Positions 4,309 to 59,141 of a stretch of 64,000 nt of DNA are shown here, piece after piece. Each line of letters opens with the position of its first letter. The stretch's first letter is position 1. The position numbers were made by a program, and so were the translations under genes. Below the pieces are notes generated by a model. The model ran no database searches. It was not told the origin of the DNA and was given only the letters and a program-made list of their open reading frames with translations. The stretch lies in NCBI RefSeq assembly GCF_056746865.1, contig NZ_CM163382.1. The stretch is one strand, 5' to 3'.

Positions 4309-4510
<202 letters not shown>

Positions 4511-4511
4511 A

Positions 4512-6026
<1,515 letters not shown>

Positions 6027-16476: not shown

Positions 16477-16561
16477 GCCGAAGTGGCGAAATCGGTAGAC
16501 GCAGTTGATTCAAAATCAACCGTAGAAATACGTGCCGGTTCGAGTCCGGCCTTCGGCACCA
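16477..16561 (+). tRNA. leuX: tRNA-Leu (anticodon CAA), 85 nt with encoded CCA
   Basis: GCCGAAGTGGCGAAATCGGTAGACGC...CGGTTCGAGTCCGGCCTTCGGCACCA; anticodon loop TTCAAAA; long variable arm typical of tRNA-Leu. Confidence 0.95.
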
Positions 16562-19500: not shown

Positions 19501-19995
19501 ATAAACAGGAAACACGGGGCGGTTCACTTTGCTTTCTCCTGTAGTGTTTTCTGTAGGTTCTGAACCGGTTCTAGCGGGGTTGTGAGGCTGATGGCAATCG
19601 CCGGGCTCTTCCTGCATGTTACACTGGTACTGCAAGAGGGGGCCTTCGCTCCTCTGACATTACTCAGTATTTTCACTACTACACCCCATCTGCCATCCAT
19701 AACAACCGATTCACCCCCTCGCGAGGCGTTGTTGCCCGTCACCCGGACAGACACCGTTATGGACTTCTCTTGTTGCACGATCGATCAATTGTTATGCATG
19801 CTGACACCACAACCCCGGTGGGTATGACCGATGCCTTTCTCACTCTCTTCCCGGTCATCGTCGGCCTTCCCCGTTATTGTGGCGTGTCAGCACCCTCGAC
19901 GGCATTTCGATGGCTGCTCAGTGTTCACTCACGTTACGGCCCGCATAACCCGTTGACTTCCTGAAGAAGTCGTTTCAGGGAGAGATTCAGCCCTT

Positions 19996-20325
19996 TTGTT
20001 ACCTCCTGGACCGCTTCTTGTCCTTCCAGTCGGAGCGAGAGTTAGCCGGGGCGGACTTTCACCGACGGAAAGATCGTGCATTTCAAGGCACACACAACAA
20101 TATCTGCGAGCGTGCTATCCGTCCGGTCGTTATGGGACGAAAGGCCTGGTTGTTCGCTGGTTCACTGGTGGCCGGGAACCGCGCGGCACAGATAATGAGC
20201 CTTCTGGGAACCGCAGTCTGGAGCCACATGCTTGGCTGACGGACGTCCTGACGCGTCTGCCGGAGTGGCCGGAGGAGAGGTTGGCTGAGTTACTGCCTCT
20301 TGAGGGCTTTACCTTCTTCGGGTAA
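19996..20325 (+). pseudogene. IS66-family transposase C-terminal remnant (frameshifted); coincides with a 109-aa yjgZ-like ORF
   Basis: Two overlapping frames encode ...ERAIRPVVMGRKAWLFAGS... and ...AWLTDVLTRLPEWPEERLAELLP..., both similar to the C-terminus of the IS66 TnpC at 45.7 kb. Confidence 0.6.
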
Positions 20326-49268: not shown

Positions 49269-49838
49269 TCAACTCCGGCTACAGCCAAAATTGCGCTCAC
49301 CGGTGCAGTGAGCTTTGGTATACTCCTTCGCCAGATAGTCAGCACGTTCCAGCACTTGCTGAAAGCCGGTGTCATCATTACGCGCCAGCCACACCGCCGG
49401 CCAGGCCGGAAAATGCACCAGCGTGGCATGGCACCCGACATCCACTCCCAGGGCACTGCACCACGCCTGTTTAATCATCCCGGCCAGAGACTCCGGAGCG
49501 CGGTAATCACCGGCACGACACCAGGTATCCCGGTTGACCAGCAGCATCAGGTGATAGTGTTTTTTACCTTTGCACTCCCCAAACTCCCGGGCCCAGACGT
49601 AATGCAGGGTTGTGGGATGCACGCGTTTACCTTCCCGATGCTTACGTTTCTGGTAAGCGTCGATTCGGGCTTTCAGGGCATTGATGAAGCGGGATATCAC
49701 AGCTGCGTCCGTTGCTGCCGGTACATCCGGGAAACGCAGGTCAACCCGCAATGCCGTCAGGCGGGGATGAACATTCAGTGCGTGCCGCACCGTCTCACGA
49801 ATACGTTGCTGCCAGAAGGGGTTGTATTTGTAGGTCAT
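49269..49838 (-). CDS. Hypothetical protein, possibly YagK/YfjJ (inovirus Gp2-like) family
   Basis: 189-aa product from MTYKYNPFWQQRIRETV..., GGAG RBS 10 nt upstream; family assignment from memory; alternative start 49874. Confidence 0.45.
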   Translation of the reverse strand: MTYKYNPFWQQRIRETVRHALNVHPRLTALRVDLRFPDVPAATDAAVISRFINALKARIDAYQKRKHREGKRVHPTTLHYVWAREFGECKGKKHYHLMLLVNRDTWCRAGDYRAPESLAGMIKQAWCSALGVDVGCHATLVHFPAWPAVWLARNDDTGFQQVLERADYLAKEYTKAHCTGERNFGCSRS

Positions 49839-50238: not shown

Positions 50239-50815
50239 GATAACGGTTCATGTATCCCCTGAGCTGACAGTGTACCGGGTATATTAAGCGTAACCGACAG
50301 GTTCTCCTTCATACCATATTAAATTTTTCCAGGTATTGCCGCTGCCTTATTTCGTCCCATACAGGAAAACTCGTCTGGGTTTCTGACAAATACGCGAAAC
50401 TCACAGCCCCTCAATATCAACCACACGCTGTAAGCCGGTAATACCTGAAAATCAGCCTATTACCGCCCGCGCCTCCGTTACCGAACGCTCAGGTGACCAG
50501 ACTGAAGCCCTGCACGCACTCGTAAAGTTTGCGGTCAGTTCCGTCAGTCGGTGGGCAACCGCAGAGTTACGGGCTTCCAGGTCCACAGGAGTGAGTCTAT
50601 AACGCGTGTGAAAAATCATTTTTTCTGGCGTTGACAGAACACATTACAGGCTGCCACTTACCCGGTGTCCCGCAATACAGCCTTAGTGTTCCGTTATCGG
50701 GGATCCGGACGCACCGCAACAACCGGGGAAGTATTTCTGGTTTAGAGCTGTGTCAAGAGGGATTTCTCAGCCCCTCACTCACCGGCTCAGTCTCAGAGCA
50801 GGAGTGGATTTGCCC

Positions 50816-51721
50816 CTATATTTCCAGACACCTGTTATCACTTAACCCATTACTGGCCCGCTGCCGTAGATATTCCCGTGGCGAGCGATAACCCAGTGCA
50901 CTATGCGGATGCCATTCGTTATAATGCTCGAACGCCTCTGCAAGGTTCTTTGCTGCCGTTAACCCGTCTGGTTTAGGCATGATACTGATGTAGTCACGCT
51001 TTATCGTTTTCACGAAGCTCTCTGCTATGCCGTTACTCTCCGGACTCCGCACCGCCGTGTTCTTCGGTTCAAGCCCCAACATCCGGGCAAACTGCCGTGT
51101 TTCATTAGCCCGGTAGCATGAACCATTATCCGTCAGCCACTCTACTGGAGACGCCGGAAGCTCGTTGCCGAAGCGGCGTTCCACCGCTCCCAGCATTACG
51201 TCCTGTACTGTTTCACTGTCGAAGCCGCCCGTAGTGACTGCCCAGTGCAGTGCCTCACGGTCACAGCAGTCCAGCGCGAACGTGACTCGCAGTTTTTCTC
51301 CGTTATCACAGCGGAACTCGAACCCGTCAGAGCACCATCGTTGATTGCTTTCTTTCACGGCCACTTTGCCAGTATGTGCCCGTTTCGATGGCGGTACAGC
51401 GGTTTTTCGCTCAAGCAACAGCGCATTCTGGCGCATGATCCGGTAAACACGTTTGGCATTGATCGCAGGCATACCATCAAGTTCGGCCTGTCTGCGAAGC
51501 AGCGCCCATACCCGACGATAACCATACGTGGGCAGCTCTCCGATAACATGGTGTATACGGAGAAGCACATCCGTATCATCTGAGTGACGGCTGCGGCGAC
51601 CATCTTTCCAGTCATCGGTTCGTCTGAGAATGACGTGCAACTGCGCACGCGACACCCGGAGACAACGGCTGACTAAGCTTACTCCCCATCCCCGGGCAAT
51701 AAGGGCGCGTGCGCTATCCAC
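50816..51721 (-). CDS. insD: IS2 transposase InsD (orfB)
   Basis: 301-aa [33 protein letters not shown]... Confidence 0.9.
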
Positions 51722-52044
51722 TTTTTTGCACGCCCGTATTCAACGGCTTCTTTAAGGAGTTCATTTTCCATCGTTTTTTTGCCGAGCAGGCGCTGGAGTT
51801 CTTTAATCTGCTTCATGGCAGCAGCAAGTTCAGAGGCAGGAACGACCTGCTCTCCTGCGGCCACAGCAGTAAGACTTCCCTCCTGGTATTGCTTGCGCCA
51901 GAGAAATAACTGGCTGGCTGCCACACCGTGTTGCCGGGCAACAAGGGAGACCGTCATTCCCGGTTCAAAACTCTGCTGAACAATAGCGATCTTTTCCTGT
52001 GTAGTACGCCGTCTGCGTTTCTCCGGTCCTAAGACATCAATCAT
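51679..52044 (-). CDS. insC: IS2 InsC (orfA)
   Basis: 121-aa product from [41 protein letters not shown]... Confidence 0.85.
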
Positions 52045-52696
52045 CTGCTCTCCAATGACTAGTCTAAAAACTAGTATTAAGACTATCACTTATTTAAGTG
52101 ATATTGGTTGTCTGGAGATTCAGGGGGCCAGTCTAGGAGCATTAATACGCTCAGTTCATGTCTTATACAGGAATGGGCACAGGGGGAGCTGGCGTGTCAC
52201 TGCTGATTTTACGCATCAGCGTTCATGTATTTGCACTCTGATACAGAATGCTTCACAGCGCTCTGTTACCGGAGAGATTTACTCTCTTAGCTTACTCTGG
52301 CAAATCCTTTACGTTACTCTCTGATGACTTCTTATATTTATAATACCAATCAGACAGCCTTATCCCATCGGTGATATCAGTCTCCTCCTCGCCAGGAACG
52401 GGCTGACTCACTGTAACCACCTCCGAAAACAACTCTGCAATTATCAGAACGCTAGTTTTCCCCTTGTCTCACGAAAGTCCTCCCTCCTTTATCGCGCGTG
52501 CGTGCGGAAGCATCTTTTCGCAACAACCCCCCGGGATTCCGCTACGGCTCTGCCATCGCAATCCCCCCGTTTATCTCCGGACAGCCACATTCCCGATTAT
52601 TTTTTACGTTTCTCCCCGGTTGTTATGCCAGTGAAGGTGGCGCGCTGTTTTCATGACCACACCGGCTGGTTTAACAACATCCGGAGGAACATTCTC

Positions 52697-52870
52697 ATGG
52701 CTACCCCTGTTTCGCTGATGGATGACCAGATGGTCGACATGGCGTTTATCACTCAACTTACCGGCTTAACCGATAAGTGGTTTTACAAACTCATCAAAGA
52801 TGGGGGCTTTCCTGCCCCCATCAAAATGGGGCGCAGCTCCCGCTGGCTGAAAAGTGAAGTGGAAGCCTGG
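52697..52870 (+). CDS. AlpA-family (P4 Vis-like) phage regulatory protein, 3' end interrupted by IS
   Basis: MATPVSLMDDQMVDMAFITQLTGLTDKWFYKLIKDGGFPAPIKMGRSSRWLKSEVEAW; reads into the IS terminus at 52871. Confidence 0.65.
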
Positions 52871-54168
<1,298 letters not shown>

Positions 54169-54243
54169 TGACCGTTATCCGTTCACCCGCAGCAGACGTA
54201 ATCTCCGGCCTGCCGGCGGCATTCTGCTGCCTGTTATATCCCC

Positions 54244-54861
54244 GTGAGGAATATGAAAATGAAACAACAGTATCAGACCCGCTACGAATGGCTCCACGAA
54301 AGCTACCAGAAATGGCTGACCGGCTTCACCCGGCACGCCGTATCCTGGGGCGTGTGTCATCCGAATATCTACTACTTCCATAATCTGACGCCCGGTTGGG
54401 TGTCATTCAATGGTGAAAAACCGGAGATTGCCATCGTACCCCAGAGCCTGCACCGGCTGATTTATGGCCCTGACAAACGGGCCACACCGCCCCTGGATGA
54501 TGATCTGATAGTGAATTTATGCACCAGTGAACATCTGCTGGTTCATCATCCGATGCTGGAAGGCATTCTCCTGTCTGAATGTGAACGTCTGAGGCAGCGT
54601 TCTCTGGCAAATAAACTGATCAGCCTCTTCCGTCAGTTTGGTGGCACGGAGTTGCGCCTCAAACTGGTCTGGCTTTGCTGGCTTGATTTAATGACCGGAA
54701 ACTGCCTTGACGACTGGACGGAGAATCTGAAACGGAAATCAGAAAAAGAGCTGGAGGAATGGATCATCAACCGTCAGAAGCAGAGCGCAGCACTGACGGA
54801 TCTGATGGATCAGTACGTGCTCCTGTCATACCGCACAACGGTTGACGATAAGCGCACCTGA
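54244..54861 (+). CDS. Hypothetical protein (205 aa)
   Basis: Intact ORF downstream of the alpA-like gene; no recognisable motif. Confidence 0.55.
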   Translation: MRNMKMKQQYQTRYEWLHESYQKWLTGFTRHAVSWGVCHPNIYYFHNLTPGWVSFNGEKPEIAIVPQSLHRLIYGPDKRATPPLDDDLIVNLCTSEHLLVHHPMLEGILLSECERLRQRSLANKLISLFRQFGGTELRLKLVWLCWLDLMTGNCLDDWTENLKRKSEKELEEWIINRQKQSAALTDLMDQYVLLSYRTTVDDKRT

Positions 54862-55083
54862 TGCCAGTTGTTTCAGGGAAGCTGGTATCCGGGCAGGGTG
54901 CCAGGGCTGACTGAACGGCCTGTCTGCCTGCCGTTTCGCTCTCCGTGCGTTCTGTCACACGCTGCACCTGAACGCCGGACTGCGGGCACGCAGACAGGAA
55001 AGTCGCAGGCTGGAACTTCTGACCGGCGGGTATCAGTTATATGCCTGTTGATTCATCACCACCACGCAGCTCCTGAGCTTTAG

Positions 55084-55123
55084 TTCATCACCGATATTCA
55101 TACATCTGAATATCGGTGATGAA
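55084..55123. repeat. Perfect inverted repeat, 17-bp arms with 6-bp spacer
   Basis: TTCATCACCGATATTCA tacatc TGAATATCGGTGATGAA in the convergent intergenic region. Confidence 0.9.
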
Positions 55124-55182
55124 ATCCCCATAATAATCAATCATCTAAGTCTGAAGCATAATGGAGAAAAACTGCTCACCGG

Positions 55183-56667
55183 TTACTTCGCTCTCAGCTT
55201 ATTGTAGTGATAACCCGAGGTAAAAATACCAGAGACATCAGACAACTTTAAACTGGCTATCTGGGGAAGCAGAACATACATGGTTTTTCCTTCCGGCACG
55301 ACAGAAAGCCTGAACTGAGATTCAAGAATGTTCAGCAATGCGTTCAGTTTTTTCCTGTTTCTGAACCGGCCCGGGCCACACTGGAGAATATAATTTTTCC
55401 TGACACGGGGCGGGCATTCTCCGCGGCACTCCTCAATGAGCCAGTCGAACAGCTCCTCGGCGTCCTTCTGCTGCAGTTCAGATTCATCAGGTAACGCAAA
55501 TAATTTTTTATATTCATCTGTGTACCACGAACTTATTACGACAGCAGACGTCATGATATCGGCAGAGATTTTCCCTTCACCATAGCTGAAATACTGAAAT
55601 AACGCTGCAATTCTTGCAATGTTTTCTGTTTTTTTTGAAACATGTCCCCGAAACGGGCTTAAGGGTCCGGAAGGGGATAAATCCTGCTCCAGAACATTAT
55701 AGTGCTCAATAAATATTTTTTGCGCTTCAGGCGAAAAATGCAGACAATACCGTTCATCCTCACTGGATTTTTCAATACTGCCTCTGGCCAGTTCCATTAA
55801 TCGTTCATGAAATGCCGTTAATGATCCTCCCGGAATCACAGCTCCGTTAATAAAGCGTTTCCCCTGCGTGGTTGCAGGTTTACTGATAAGACAACGGGCA
55901 AGAAAACCACTGTCCCTGGCAACAGAACCTTTTCGCTCCATATATCGGTCAAAAAGACCGGGTTGCACCATGAGGGATAACGTCATTCTGGCATTTTCAA
56001 TCATCTGTTCGGGTTCATTCTTTCTGTCCACAGACAATACAGAGCCATCCCACATTTTGTTAATAAAAGGCAACTCAGACAGGGTATATCCATCAAATAT
56101 AATACCGGCTTCATCTGACATAATACCAACTGAACGCCATTTACCACAAAGCTGATTCTTAATTGCCGCAGTCGTGGCATCATTAAAAATGAATTTATAC
56201 CTCACAGGTTCTTCCGCACTGTTTTTCTGAAGTACTTCCAGTTGTCTGAGGGTTTCTGACTCATCCGCGCCTTTGCGGAGTTCTTTATTCAGTTTTGACA
56301 ACAATGCTTTTTTCTGAGCCTTTAAAAGCTCTTCCTTGTTTTTCCAGACAGCCAGTTCACTTTTGTATCTGGAATATAACTGCATCTCCTGCTGGTACAG
56401 GGGCTTCATTAATAATTTGTCCACTGCGGTTTTTCGTTCTCCGGACTCGGCAAGCGTCAGGAAAAAAAGAGAGACCGGCCCCCGCAGTGTATTCAGTCTG
56501 CAGACATCAATCAGATTCTGGCAGACAAGTGAAACAGCGCCCAGGGCAGACGCTGCCACAAGCCCAAGGGGAGCCTGCGTAATTTGCTGAGCTTCAATAA
56601 CGGCATCACGAATGAGTGGAGGCAGCGAACTCAGGGGAAACTCATCACAAGGCTGACCGAATGACAT
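55183..56667 (-). CDS. Hypothetical protein (about 494 aa), possibly DUF3987/YfjI-like
   Basis: Long intact ORF; start taken at MSFGQPCDEFPLSSLPPLIRDA; family assignment is recollection only. Confidence 0.45.
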   Translation of the reverse strand: MSFGQPCDEFPLSSLPPLIRDAVIEAQQITQAPLGLVAASALGAVSLVCQNLIDVCRLNTLRGPVSLFFLTLAESGERKTAVDKLLMKPLYQQEMQLYSRYKSELAVWKNKEELLKAQKKALLSKLNKELRKGADESETLRQLEVLQKNSAEEPVRYKFIFNDATTAAIKNQLCGKWRSVGIMSDEAGIIFDGYTLSELPFINKMWDGSVLSVDRKNEPEQMIENARMTLSLMVQPGLFDRYMERKGSVARDSGFLARCLISKPATTQGKRFINGAVIPGGSLTAFHERLMELARGSIEKSSEDERYCLHFSPEAQKIFIEHYNVLEQDLSPSGPLSPFRGHVSKKTENIARIAALFQYFSYGEGKISADIMTSAVVISSWYTDEYKKLFALPDESELQQKDAEELFDWLIEECRGECPPRVRKNYILQCGPGRFRNRKKLNALLNILESQFRLSVVPEGKTMYVLLPQIASLKLSDVSGIFTSGYHYNKLRAK

Positions 56668-57897
56668 AGTAACCTCACTATACACAGATATAAAAGCACT
56701 GCAATTCTGGCTATTAATAGCAAAAATAGCAGTCAAATCAATATGAGGTAAAATTTTTTGTTGATTTAATGGTTAAATAATAACCACAGTGTATTTTGCT
56801 GCTGAAGAAAGACAAAATGAATCTGTGTGTCCCCTCCTTCCCTTCGGAGCACATCCACTATTCAAATTTTACACAACCACGTACGAACAAAAAGCATCAT
56901 CCCGGGTATTGCAGATACCGGTTTCCTGCCGGGAAGAATCATAAACAGAACACCGGGAATAACGCCTTCAGGAATCACCCCCCCTCCTGAAGAAGAATAA
57001 AATAAAGAAGACTACAGTTCCTGCACTGAATGCTGAGTACAATATTTTATGGACAGGATGACATTTTTATAAATAACAAAAACCATTTAATACTGATACA
57101 TCAATAAAATACTTCTTCCCTGCTGACACAGATAAAATGCACCATTTTTTCTTCAAATACTTCTGTATAATCGCCAGCCAATGATGAGAATGGATTAAAA
57201 TAACACTTCTTCGACAAACACAAAAACAGCCTTCATTTTACATCATCATCCAGTTTCAGTTAACCCCGGACGAGCGACAGTGTTTCAGTACAGGAATTAA
57301 AAGCCAGCTTTTGCTCAGTAAAACACACTCAACTAATAATATCTCAGCAGATATTATCCTGACCAGGACACCTCACATTACTGAATTCTCTTCCGACAGT
57401 ATCACTGCACAAATAAAAAAGAACGGGATAAATATTCAGACCGGAAGAATGGTGTCACAAAAGCATTTAATCATTACGCATGACCAGGAAGGGAAACACT
57501 TAACCACATGGTATCAACAGATATCATTACGTGTGCACTCTTATAAAAAACACACAGAAGAAGTAAGATAATTATAAACGTAAATTTAATATCTCCCACT
57601 GACATCTCCCCCACAATACACTAAAAAATACTCACAGCAGTAAACACAGATACACCTGATAATCATACAGCCGATAAATATTTTCCCCTTTACGGAGAAA
57701 TCAGCCTGCTGTTTAACAATAACGGCGTATTTTCATGGAAGGAGATCACCCAGTAACGGATAAGTCCTGATCTCCTTCATGTTAATACGCAACAATCCCA
57801 TCGATTCAAAACAATTTCAGACAGATATTATCTCCGTGAATCCCCCGCCACCTTTCCGGTGCGCGGGGTTTTGTCTTTTTTCACCGGGAATACATGT

Positions 57898-58884: not shown

Positions 58885-58928
58885 AAACGATCGATAAAAC
58901 AGGTATCGATCGTTGCTATCGATCGTTT
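58885..58928. promoter_or_regulatory. agn43 phase-variation switch: three GATC (Dam) sites in the expected OxyR-binding region
   Basis: GATC at 58889, 58908 and 58921 within AACGATCGATAAAACAGGTATCGATCGTTGCTATCGATCG. Confidence 0.7.
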
Positions 58929-59083
58929 ATAGTGGTTAATGGTCTGCGAAAAGGCAGCTGAATCTCTTCATCATGCAGAACGGAATTGCACACAACGGAC
59001 TGATACTTCTCTGGCGGATGAGAGAGGGGAAGCATTTATGTCCGGGAAAAACCACTTTATCTGAGCATGCTGTTTTGTACCTG

Positions 59084-59116
59084 CCGGTATCCACATTTGT
59101 GGGTACCGGCTTTTTT
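59084..59116 (+). terminator. Terminator-like hairpin plus T6 in the flu leader
   Basis: CCGGTATCCACA-tt-TGTGGGTACCGG then CTTTTTT, ending 26 nt before the flu ATG. Confidence 0.6.
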
Positions 59117-59141
59117 ATTCACCCTCTGTAAGGAAAAGCTG

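Follow-up and report, generated by a model that had tools for sequence, protein, structure and literature searches.

Two probably independent backbone genes, a predicted DUF3987 helicase gene and an AlpA-linked orphan gene, lie tail to tail in an Escherichia coli island

Two convergent genes lie at positions 54244 to 56667 of the stretch of DNA analysed here (64,000 nucleotides of contig NZ_CM163382.1, RefSeq assembly GCF_056746865.1; hereafter the window). A sequence-only reading of the window had described both ORFs as intact amid IS damage; ORF calls and annotation confirmed this. The small ORF (54244-54861, + strand) is 205 aa long when counted from GTG. In an alignment of 24 homologues and in the RefSeq model WP_000813451.1 the start is ATG 54259; this ATG, rather than GTG 54244, is probably the start of the gene, which hence encodes 200 aa. 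The large ORF (55183-56667, - strand) is 494 aa long from its ATG and corresponds to RefSeq WP_001297234.1. A mechanical ORF list lengthened it to 517 aa, with a TTG start at 56736. The spacer between the convergent 3′ ends measured 321 bp (54862-55182), close to the 320 bp given earlier. The combined pair is present in ~1165 of 5426 complete E. coli genomes. The features of the locus are as follows.

52697-52870, + strand: 5′ part of alpA, encoding an AlpA-family (P4 Vis-like) regulator (tblastn, junction alignment, RefSeq name)
52871-54128, - strand: insertion of ISEc31, IS3 family (junction alignment, TGG target duplication)
54132-54164, + strand: last 33 nt of alpA, displaced (alignment with uninterrupted locus L001)
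54189-54230, + strand: conserved stem-loop in the intergenic region of alpA and the 200-aa gene (multi-locus alignment, terminator scan)
54259-54861, + strand: 200-aa gene (Aec62 family), conserved second gene of the putative alpA unit (homologue alignment, dN/dS)
54955-55064, + strand: degenerate relic of the 3′ end of a paralogue (73-75% nucleotide match)
55084-55123, no strand: perfect palindrome at the junction of two modules (17-nt arms, 6-nt loop)
55183-56667, - strand: YfjI-family DUF3987 gene, 494 aa (PF13148, phrog_2373)

ISEc31 cut alpA 33 nt short of its natural end, and the annotated ORF continues into the insertion sequence to 52909. Residues 1-63 of uninterrupted AlpA matched window positions 52697-52885 in tblastn. 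The RefSeq name of the cut gene is 'AlpA family / helix-turn-helix transcriptional regulator', and PF05930 was found in homologues of this AlpA-family gene. The target duplication of ISEc31 is TGG (3 bp; 52868-52870 and 54129-54131). Only 3 genomes among the matches listed have ISEc31 at the same site; the uninterrupted strains among them align with the window from 54129 onward. The gene pair had been read as adjoining the alpA-like gene. This holds for uninterrupted strains, in which the gap between alpA and the 200-aa gene is 94 bp, but only loosely for the window, in which ISEc31 displaces the 200-aa gene 1.26 kb from alpA.

The intergenic stem-loop consists of an outer stem (54189-54196 and 54223-54230) and an inner CCGG stem (54205-54208 and 54213-54216), and its 3′ end is ~30 nt upstream of the ATG of the 200-aa gene. 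It was present in 30 of 33 aligned loci. RNAalifold analysis of the intergenic region gave no consensus structure because indels shift the outer stem; covariation was therefore counted for the inner helix alone, on a structure that we defined ourselves. The inner helix was 92% paired across 29 loci, and its apical pair covaried (GC in 19 loci, CG in 7, AU in 2, UG in 1). A consensus scan revealed terminator-like hairpins at 54214-54231, overlapping the 3′ half of the stem-loop. The stem-loop may act as a terminator or attenuator.

The suggestion that the large protein is DUF3987/YfjI-like was borne out. The protein matched PF13148 (DUF3987) with an i-Evalue of 1.6e-95, the match covering model positions 1-363 of 364 and residues 31-391; ~100 residues (392-494) lie outside it. 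The protein also matched phrog_2373 ('DNA helicase', 5.5e-82) and was 53% identical to K-12 YfjI over its full length. The last ~27 codons of yfjI differ by variant. No Walker A had been seen in the sequence-only reading; the protein has a deviant Walker A-like motif (A73-E-S-G-E-R-K79-T80, encoded at 56428-56451) and a Walker B motif (M183-S-D185-E186-A-G, encoded at 56104-56121), separated by a coiled-coil-like insert of ~55 residues. Both motifs were invariant across 10 sequences from 8 genera. The motif definition was taken from a study of AgaPH (PMC11724360). AgaPH is a PriCT-DUF3987 helicase from a Seonamhaeicola mobile element; it unwinds DNA 5′-3′, and its activity is abolished by K213A in Walker A or E297Q in Walker B (PMC11724360). 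The earlier statement that DUF3987 lacks a defined function is therefore out of date. The family has been placed among SF6/MCM-like helicases with a C-terminal wHTH (PMC4889955). Because of this family membership, we infer that the 494-aa protein is a predicted AAA+ (MCM-related) DNA helicase, oligomeric and ATP-driven. It shares with AgaPH the DUF3987 ATPase core with Walker A and Walker B; unlike AgaPH it has no N-terminal PriCT domain and carries the ~55-residue insert between the Walker motifs, and its helicase activity is a prediction. The homology to replication proteins seen in the phrog_2373 match and the DUF3987 literature speaks against the accessory role that had been proposed for the pair.

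DUF3987 proteins are often associated with an AEP or DnaG primase, either fused or encoded just upstream (PMC4889955). The association is not obligatory, and it was not found here. Pfam revealed no primase domain in the 494-aa protein, its match to a PHROG primase was weak (E 0.0067), and no AEP or DnaG primase gene is annotated near the locus in two near-identical genomes. The usual partner of yfjI in related cassettes is a gene for YfjJ or a gpII-like Rep-domain protein, not a primase. YfjI of K-12 CP4-57 (b2625) resembles the window protein in having the same Walker motifs and in covering the Pfam model end to end, and each lies in an AlpA-containing integrative island. However, yfjI of CP4-57 is on the same strand as alpA, directly after it, and is followed by yfjJ, as it is in Dickeya, Enterobacter and Yersinia; in the window it runs the opposite way, tail to tail with the 200-aa gene, and is apart from the yfjJ-like gene. 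YfjI had a chance-level match in PADLOC-DB 2.0 (E 0.028) and no relative among solved structures by sequence or profile, and our literature search found no functional study of it.

Aec62 (UniProt Q5K5T0) and the 200-aa protein share 98% identity, and models of the two superpose with a TM of 0.96. The 200-aa protein contains both core motifs of the family (P..L.G.L.SEC.RL and L.LLCW..L) and falls within the family length of 175-200 aa. Aec62 and its homologues belong to the same family; the name conveys no function. Residues P61, G102, L104, E107, R110, L111, L139, C140, W141 and Y186 were invariant in 24 family sequences (down to 23% identity); the conserved residues are few and mostly hydrophobic. 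The dN/dS of the gene was 0.06-0.26, and the AlphaFold model was confident (pLDDT 87.6, pTM 0.86). These findings indicate that the 200-aa gene is real and under constraint.

The small protein had been described as having no assignable motif, and the profile and structure searches that had been proposed for it led to the same result, finding no family or fold. It had no match in Pfam (alone or across all 24 family members), NCBIfam, PHROGs or PADLOC, and none in the PDB by sequence or profile. A fold search of the PDB with the AlphaFold model revealed no relative, and Foldseek against AFDB50 returned nothing beyond Aec62-type family members. A profile search run exhaustively over 1.84 billion representatives gave 123 matches, mostly fragments, all of the Aec62-type family. 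No curated Pfam or NCBIfam family was found for these proteins, and the literature search on Aec62 gave one relevant item, a gene-content table, and no functional study. The family is confined to Enterobacterales, and phage records are essentially devoid of the 200-aa gene. Two other identities were considered. Comparison with YfjJ of K-12 CP4-57 ruled out that the protein is YfjJ, and an hhalign probability of 0.35% led us to reject a relationship to YfjI.

The surroundings of the 200-aa gene were compared in 30 Enterobacterales species. An AlpA-family gene was directly upstream on the same strand in all 28 informative loci; the 200-aa gene always follows a PF05930 gene, PF05930 being the family of AlpA and P4 Vis excisionase-regulators. 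YfjI was within 6 kb of it in none of the 30 species loci, a sample that came from an alignment of closer relatives and is biased toward 36-64% identity. Individual loci have Dnd, BREX or VgrG cargo after the 200-aa gene in place of yfjI. Loci of Dickeya, Enterobacter and Yersinia have the order alpA-yfjI-yfjJ-cargo and lack the 200-aa gene, K-12 CP4-57 has alpA-yfjI-yfjJ without it, and some E. coli loci have the 200-aa gene and no yfjI. The two genes are thus unlinked in other genomes, an outcome that the sequence-only reading had named as counting against its proposal.

The order AlpA gene, 200-aa gene, Gp2/YfjJ-like gene was found at loci L026, L030, L038, L040, L041 and L049; many of the 30 species loci have no yfjJ-like gene nearby. 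In many species the 200-aa gene thus fills the very slot, between alpA and the yfjJ-like gene, that is taken by yfjI in CP4-57-type elements, and the two genes were mutually exclusive in the sampled loci outside E. coli. Among the loci sampled, the two appear side by side in E. coli only. The tail-to-tail arrangement with yfjI recurs in E. coli with two small-gene alleles that are 35% identical (window type and EcN/CFT073 type), and some E. coli-specific functional coupling of the two genes is possible because of this recurrence.

The palindrome in the spacer proved to be as perfect as first described: its arms (55084-55100 and 55107-55123) are 17 nt each and 100% complementary, with a 6-nt loop. 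It is unique within the window, and no match was obtained in 100 shuffles. Folded as RNA, it reached -27.7 kcal/mol (z = -7.0), far past chance. Intrinsic (Rho-independent) terminators have a G+C-rich stem followed by a T-run. Like bidirectional terminators of this kind, the palindrome is a stable hairpin centred between two 3′ ends; unlike them, it has an AT-rich stem (35% GC), is followed by ATCCCCAT on the + strand and CTAAAGCT on the - strand, with no T-run on either, and was missed by the terminator consensus scan. Because the T-run is missing on both strands, the palindrome, judged by its sequence, is not a canonical bidirectional terminator. Most likely it works at the RNA level, as a hairpin by which both convergent transcripts are ended or stabilised. 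A terminator would not need perfect arms of as much as 17 bp. Strain STEC1575 has one compensatory change in the palindrome (C>T / G>A), with which a dyad protein-binding site would be equally compatible.

The palindrome was found in 1178 E. coli genomes, approximately the number that hold the full pair with its spacer, and is confined to a single near-clonal variant of E. coli; 87 E. coli genomes fell below 99% identity. At the same place, the EcN and MS14384 variants have an alternative hairpin (CCGTCACCC/GGGTGACGG). The palindrome was not found 3′ of the 200-aa gene in Yersinia, Klebsiella or Pantoea, and Rfam gave no family match. We rejected the possibility of a dispersed repeat, since the palindrome is unique in the window and confined to one E. 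coli variant.

GC content is 51-55% on the side of the 200-aa gene versus 41-45% in yfjI, and breaks at the palindrome. Partial matches break at window positions ~54884 and ~55260. The region 54955-55064 is a relic of the last ~105 nt, stop included, of a paralogous 190-aa family member. Its nucleotides match the 3′ end of WP_001170560.1-type genes at 73-75%; 818 genomes fall in the band of 60-80% identity, and all of those listed as examples show the match. Identity between the WP_001170560.1-type paralogue and the 200-aa protein is 35%.

The genomes that match most closely have this module inside the fec / antigen-43 island. Annotation was inspected over the 27-43 kb that surround the locus in two near-identical genomes; this region contains genes for a GTPase, Ag43, DUF932, antirestriction, RadC/JAB and CbtA/CbeA proteins, a set that is the backbone of a CP4-like island. 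The island also has a Rep-domain ('inovirus Gp2 family') gene, at 49272-49838. Elsewhere a 305-339-aa gene stands before the GTPase gene; we considered whether the 1.19 kb that separate yfjI from the GTPase gene are a remnant of it, and rejected this. P4-like satellites carry a P4-type primase-helicase gene and capsid-redirecting or helper-exploiting genes by int and vis. Neither P4-type primase nor capsid-hijack genes were found in the annotated 27-43 kb of the two near-identical genomes; by this gene content, the locus is not a P4 satellite.

We consider it likely that the locus is part of a CP4-like island backbone in which two independent genes have been joined tail to tail, and that the pair is not a two-gene system. 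yfjI would be what remains of a replication module that belonged to the element itself; in related elements this module forms the cassette alpA-yfjI-yfjJ, in which YfjJ is a gpII-like Rep-domain protein. The 200-aa gene would take a fixed second place in the alpA transcription unit, ~90-130 bp after alpA and behind the stem-loop, and would be expressed via read-through from alpA. Its product may be a helical, non-enzymatic adaptor or regulator that acts together with AlpA to control island excision or replication. Recombination would have brought the two modules tail to tail, and the palindrome would lie at their junction, where the break in GC content and the break in homology fall beside the relic of an older family member.

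The proposal of a satellite-encoded accessory function, with the convergent genes as a module of a P4-like satellite (for example for anti-phage defence or interference) and the palindrome as a shared bidirectional terminator, appears highly improbable. The intactness of both ORFs amid IS damage, the recurrence of their arrangement (~1165 of 5426 complete E. coli genomes, and a second time with a divergent allele of the small gene), and the defence cargo in the slot after alpA in other genera are consistent with it. However, neither protein had a significant PADLOC match, phage records have essentially no copy of the 200-aa gene, and in none of the 30 other species do the two genes lie next to each other (no YfjI within 6 kb at any of the 30 loci). 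YfjI is a backbone helicase by family and lies ahead of the cargo in other elements, the two genes differ by ~10 points in GC and are joined at an apparent recombination scar, and the palindrome has no U-tract. It is also quite unlikely that the palindrome is a DNA site, either a dyad operator (for AlpA, the wHTH of YfjI or the 200-aa protein) or a cruciform or nick origin for a gpII-like Rep. The perfect, AT-rich 17-bp arms without a U-tract, the dyad symmetry kept by paired C>T / G>A changes in one divergent allele, and the Rep-domain Gp2-family gene at 49272-49838 would fit such a site, but no second copy of the half-site was found across the 64 kb, with up to 3 mismatches allowed, other variants and genera have a different hairpin or none, and template switching can yield symmetric palindrome mutations without selection.

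Two further readings concern the 200-aa protein. That it replaces YfjI as a replication accessory, recruiting a host helicase or assisting the gpII-like Rep at the island origin and being redundant or cooperating with the inverted yfjI in E. coli, seems rather doubtful to us. Like yfjI in CP4-57-type cassettes, its gene stands between alpA and a Rep-domain gene of the yfjJ/Gp2-like type, the two genes exclude each other in the sampled loci outside E. coli, and few, mainly hydrophobic conserved residues would be expected of an adaptor. This argument is one from position, however; many loci have no yfjJ-like gene nearby, E. coli has kept both genes, and the hhalign comparison with YfjI (0.35%) and the search for loader or initiator matches in the PDB were negative. 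A bolder reading is possible, though we think it unlikely: the Aec62-type protein would be an Enterobacterales-specific switch or adaptor of new fold that couples AlpA induction to island replication or excision, takes the place of YfjI in an alpA-X-yfjJ order, and is made only when AlpA drives transcription through the stem-loop. If true, it would be an unrecognised core gene of widespread defence-carrying integrative islands and a handle on Dnd/BREX/T6SS hotspots.

On the preferred reading of two independent backbone genes, both would be ordinary components of a very common E. coli island (the module is present in about a fifth of complete genomes), with no bearing on any long-standing question of the field. 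The AlpA-tied orphan family is the one modestly interesting part. With a confident predicted fold, no PDB relative and no curated family, it is a reasonable target for characterisation. In other genera, variable defence cargo (Dnd/Dpt, BREX, T6SS effectors) lies directly 3′ of the putative alpA unit; the 200-aa family is a reliable marker of that unit and could help to delimit cargo hotspots. As to annotation, the name 'YfjI family protein' can be taken to mean a predicted DUF3987 helicase with intact ATPase motifs, and some homologues of Aec62 are mislabelled as 'Malate transporter' or 'Secretoglobin family protein'.

Two intact ORFs facing each other across a spacer that holds a perfect palindrome were confirmed, as the sequence-only reading had described them:

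54244-54861, + strand: ORF of the smaller gene (Aec62 family), 205 aa from GTG, uninterrupted
55183-56667, - strand: ORF of yfjI, 494 aa from ATG, uninterrupted
55084-55100 / 55107-55123: perfect palindrome in the spacer, 17-nt arms, 6-nt loop

The spacer between the ORFs is 321 bp. In an alignment of 24 homologues the smaller family starts MK..., five codons inside the 205-aa ORF, and RefSeq WP_000813451.1 is the same gene at 200 aa, so ATG 54259 is likely the real start. On the best-supported reading the finding is an ordinary one: a YfjI helicase and an AlpA-coupled orphan gene of the island backbone.

The suggestion that the larger protein is DUF3987/YfjI-like held up. The 494-aa protein matched Pfam DUF3987 end to end (1.6e-95) and PHROG 2373 'DNA helicase' (5.5e-82), is 53% identical to K-12 YfjI, and is named 'YfjI family protein' in RefSeq. 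The accompanying claim that it has no Walker A was incorrect: it has a Walker A of deviant form, A73-E-S-G-E-R-K79-T, along with the Walker B M183-S-D-E186-A-G, and neither motif varies among ten sequences representing eight genera. Published work groups DUF3987 with the SF6 / MCM-related helicases, describes a C-terminal wHTH and predicts a replicative role (PMC4889955; PMC5862659). For one DUF3987 member, AgaPH, an oligomeric state and 5'-3' helicase activity have been demonstrated, and mutations in Walker A and Walker B abolish the activity (PMC11724360). No solved structure related to YfjI was detectable by sequence. YfjI is thus best regarded as the DUF3987 helicase of the island, with helicase activity of the window protein predicted from these matches.

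Searches of the 200-aa protein against Pfam, NCBIfam, PHROGs, PADLOC and PDB sequences gave no match. A word-indexed search gave 189 clusters, Enterobacterales throughout, and a profile searched exhaustively against 1.84 billion representatives gave 123 matches, for the most part fragments. The gene is real and under purifying selection, with dN/dS of 0.06-0.26 where dS was estimable (dS was saturated otherwise). The few invariant residues of the family (P61, G102, L104, E107, R110, L111, L120, L139, C140, W141 and Y186) do not point to a catalytic site. The gene is essentially missing from phage records and true plasmids, and in the literature searched the sole relevant mention of Aec62 was an entry in a gene-content table.

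Linkage was analyzed in neighbourhoods from other genera and of distant homologues, and then in one genome per species, with tblastn on the 30 recovered loci. AlpA lay directly upstream of the 200-aa gene, on the same strand and about 90-130 bp away, in all 28 loci with enough upstream DNA; in one of these a zinc-ribbon gene stood between them. A YeeP-like GTPase gene was found upstream on the opposite strand in 22/30 loci. Downstream, the content varied: a YfjJ/Gp2-like Rep-domain gene, zinc-ribbon genes, or defence/competition cargo (DndBCDE, BREX, VgrG). YfjI was within 6 kb of the 200-aa gene in none of the 30 loci. YfjI homologues in Dickeya, Enterobacter and Yersinia occur in the order int...alpA-yfjI-yfjJ-cargo (BREX, Hachiman, R-M) without the 200-aa gene, and K-12 CP4-57 likewise has alpA-yfjI-yfjJ without it. 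E. coli loci are of three kinds: the arrangement found in the window; a 93%-identical yfjI paired with a 190-aa paralogue of 35% identity (EcN); and the small gene with yfjI absent. The 200-aa gene and yfjI are therefore separable, and comparing the profiles of their products gave no sign of a relationship. The unit that holds robustly is alpA with the 200-aa gene behind it; adjacency to yfjI is best explained by an E. coli-specific rearrangement. The interpretation given with the sequence-only reading was partly supported: the arrangement stands, the idea of a linked accessory pair is not supported, and the two observations that its proposer had named as counting against it, helicase homology and genes unlinked elsewhere, were both made.

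The order alpA, 200-aa gene, yfjJ-like gene was present in 6 of the 30 species loci and mirrors the alpA-yfjI-yfjJ order of CP4-57-type cassettes; the 200-aa protein thus sits in the slot of the helicase. This shared slot underlies a more speculative idea that the protein might act as a replication or excision adaptor. The best-supported description is an AlpA-coupled orphan backbone gene. What interest remains lies in the family itself, an uncurated orphan with a predicted new fold, strictly tied to AlpA and marking cargo hotspots in other genera. Such a hotspot begins right after alpA and the 200-aa gene, or right after alpA-yfjI-yfjJ, in those genera (comparison loci L004-L010 and L019-L025); its cargo is DndBCDE-type genes, BREX, Hachiman (HamA + DEAD helicase), R-M genes or else a VgrG/T6SS cluster.

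Several complete E. coli chromosomes contain the 2.7-kb region at 100% identity, and at least 80% of it is held by ~1165 of 5426 complete E. coli genomes; in matching genomes the module is located in the fec / antigen-43 island. The order of genes there is a zinc-ribbon gene pair and an 'inovirus Gp2 family' gene (opposite strand), followed by alpA, the 200-aa gene and convergent yfjI, and then a YeeP/YfjP-like GTPase gene, Ag43, DUF905, DUF932, an antirestriction gene, RadC/JAB, DUF987 and CbeA/CbtA. This gene set is the familiar CP4-6 / CP4-44 / CP4-57-type backbone. Features around alpA in the window are:

49272-49838, - strand: 'inovirus Gp2 family' / YfjJ-like Rep-domain gene, intact
about 50800-52100: IS2 copy upstream of alpA, not present there in CFSAN061770, the genome that matches best
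52871-54128: ISEc31 (IS3-family) copy inside the 3' end of alpA, target duplication TGG
54189-54230: two-tier stem-loop, outer stem 54189-54196 / 54223-54230, inner CCGG stem 54205-54208 / 54213-54216

YfjI of related alpA-yfjI-yfjJ cassettes likely has the YfjJ-like protein as its functional partner. ISEc31 truncates alpA 33 nt short of its stop and displaces the 200-aa gene 1.26 kb from it (the gap is 94 bp in uninterrupted strains); with IS2 upstream, both sides of the alpA unit are therefore disrupted in the window strain.

The stem-loop is conserved; it lies in the intergenic region separating alpA from the 200-aa gene and ends about 30 nt ahead of the ATG of the latter. Its motif was recognisable in 30 of 33 aligned loci, and a U-rich stretch follows it in most genera. 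Statistics refer to the inner helix; the outer stem, its register shifted by indels, was left out of the count. In the 29 loci counted, which span many genera, the inner helix of 5 bp was 92% paired, with an apical pair of GC in 19, CG in 7, AU in 2 and UG in 1, and none of 500 shuffles reached its pairing percentage or covariation score. The structure looks like a terminator or attenuator and may gate the 200-aa gene behind alpA.

The palindrome is unique in the window, never arose in shuffles, and folds at -27.7 kcal/mol (z = -7). At ≥80% coverage, the spacer was found in 1176 genomes, the palindrome in 1178 and the full pair in 1165, most matches being ≥99% identical. By these numbers the palindrome is not a dispersed element; because the flanks are equally conserved, conservation of the palindrome itself carries little information. 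Spacer positions 94-201 (window 54955-55064) hold what is left, in degenerate form, of the 190-aa paralogue's final ~105 nt with its stop codon. This relic matches intact paralogue genes of other E. coli at 73-75% and shows that the present allele arrived by recombination beside an older member of the family. Genomes that match only in part have their breakpoints at ~54884 and ~55260, and GC steps down sharply at the palindrome (55000-55200), from 51-55% over the 200-aa gene to 41-45% over yfjI (36-39% in the 1.2 kb beyond). The breakpoints and GC drop thus place the palindrome within a ~370-bp variant-specific segment at a module junction.

No T-run flanks the palindrome on either side and the terminator scan made no call there; it had no Rfam match, no half-site repeat within the window, and was not found downstream of the 200-aa gene in other genera. 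At the equivalent convergent junction of other E. coli variants the hairpin is a different one, of 9-12 bp (CCGTCACCC / GGGTGACGG), which speaks for a generic hairpin where transcripts end. The sole divergent palindrome allele examined, from STEC1575 (L056 401-472 = window 55070-55140; 94% identity), differs by C>T on the left and by G>A at the pairing position on the right; this paired change keeps the dyad, and the outermost pairs are lost. A single such change fits selection, whether on an RNA hairpin or on a dyad DNA site, and it fits template-switch mutation as well. As a junction hairpin, the palindrome probably ends the two convergent transcripts or stabilises them.

Between the yfjI start and the GTPase gene lies a 1.19-kb AT-rich stretch (56668-57858) whose largest ORF is ≤86 aa. 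Other loci have a gene of 305-339 aa ahead of the GTPase gene; the stretch is not a relic of it, as no more than its final 55 nt match the loci concerned. Many loci have, right beside the YeeP/YfjP-like GTPase gene, a conserved gene of 304-339 aa that lacks a Pfam match and is absent from the window; copies are at L004 5526-6539, L007 6284-7198, L008 990-1907, L015 7591-8610 and L017 9710-10627. Rfam hits elsewhere in the window, taken at gathering score, were:

4362-4437: naRNA4
5271-5465: Ysr276
16477-16558: tRNA
19929-20068: group II intron domains D1-D4
53938-54060: isrC, inside the IS3-family element
58887-59123: 'IS102 RNA', just upstream of the Ag43 gene
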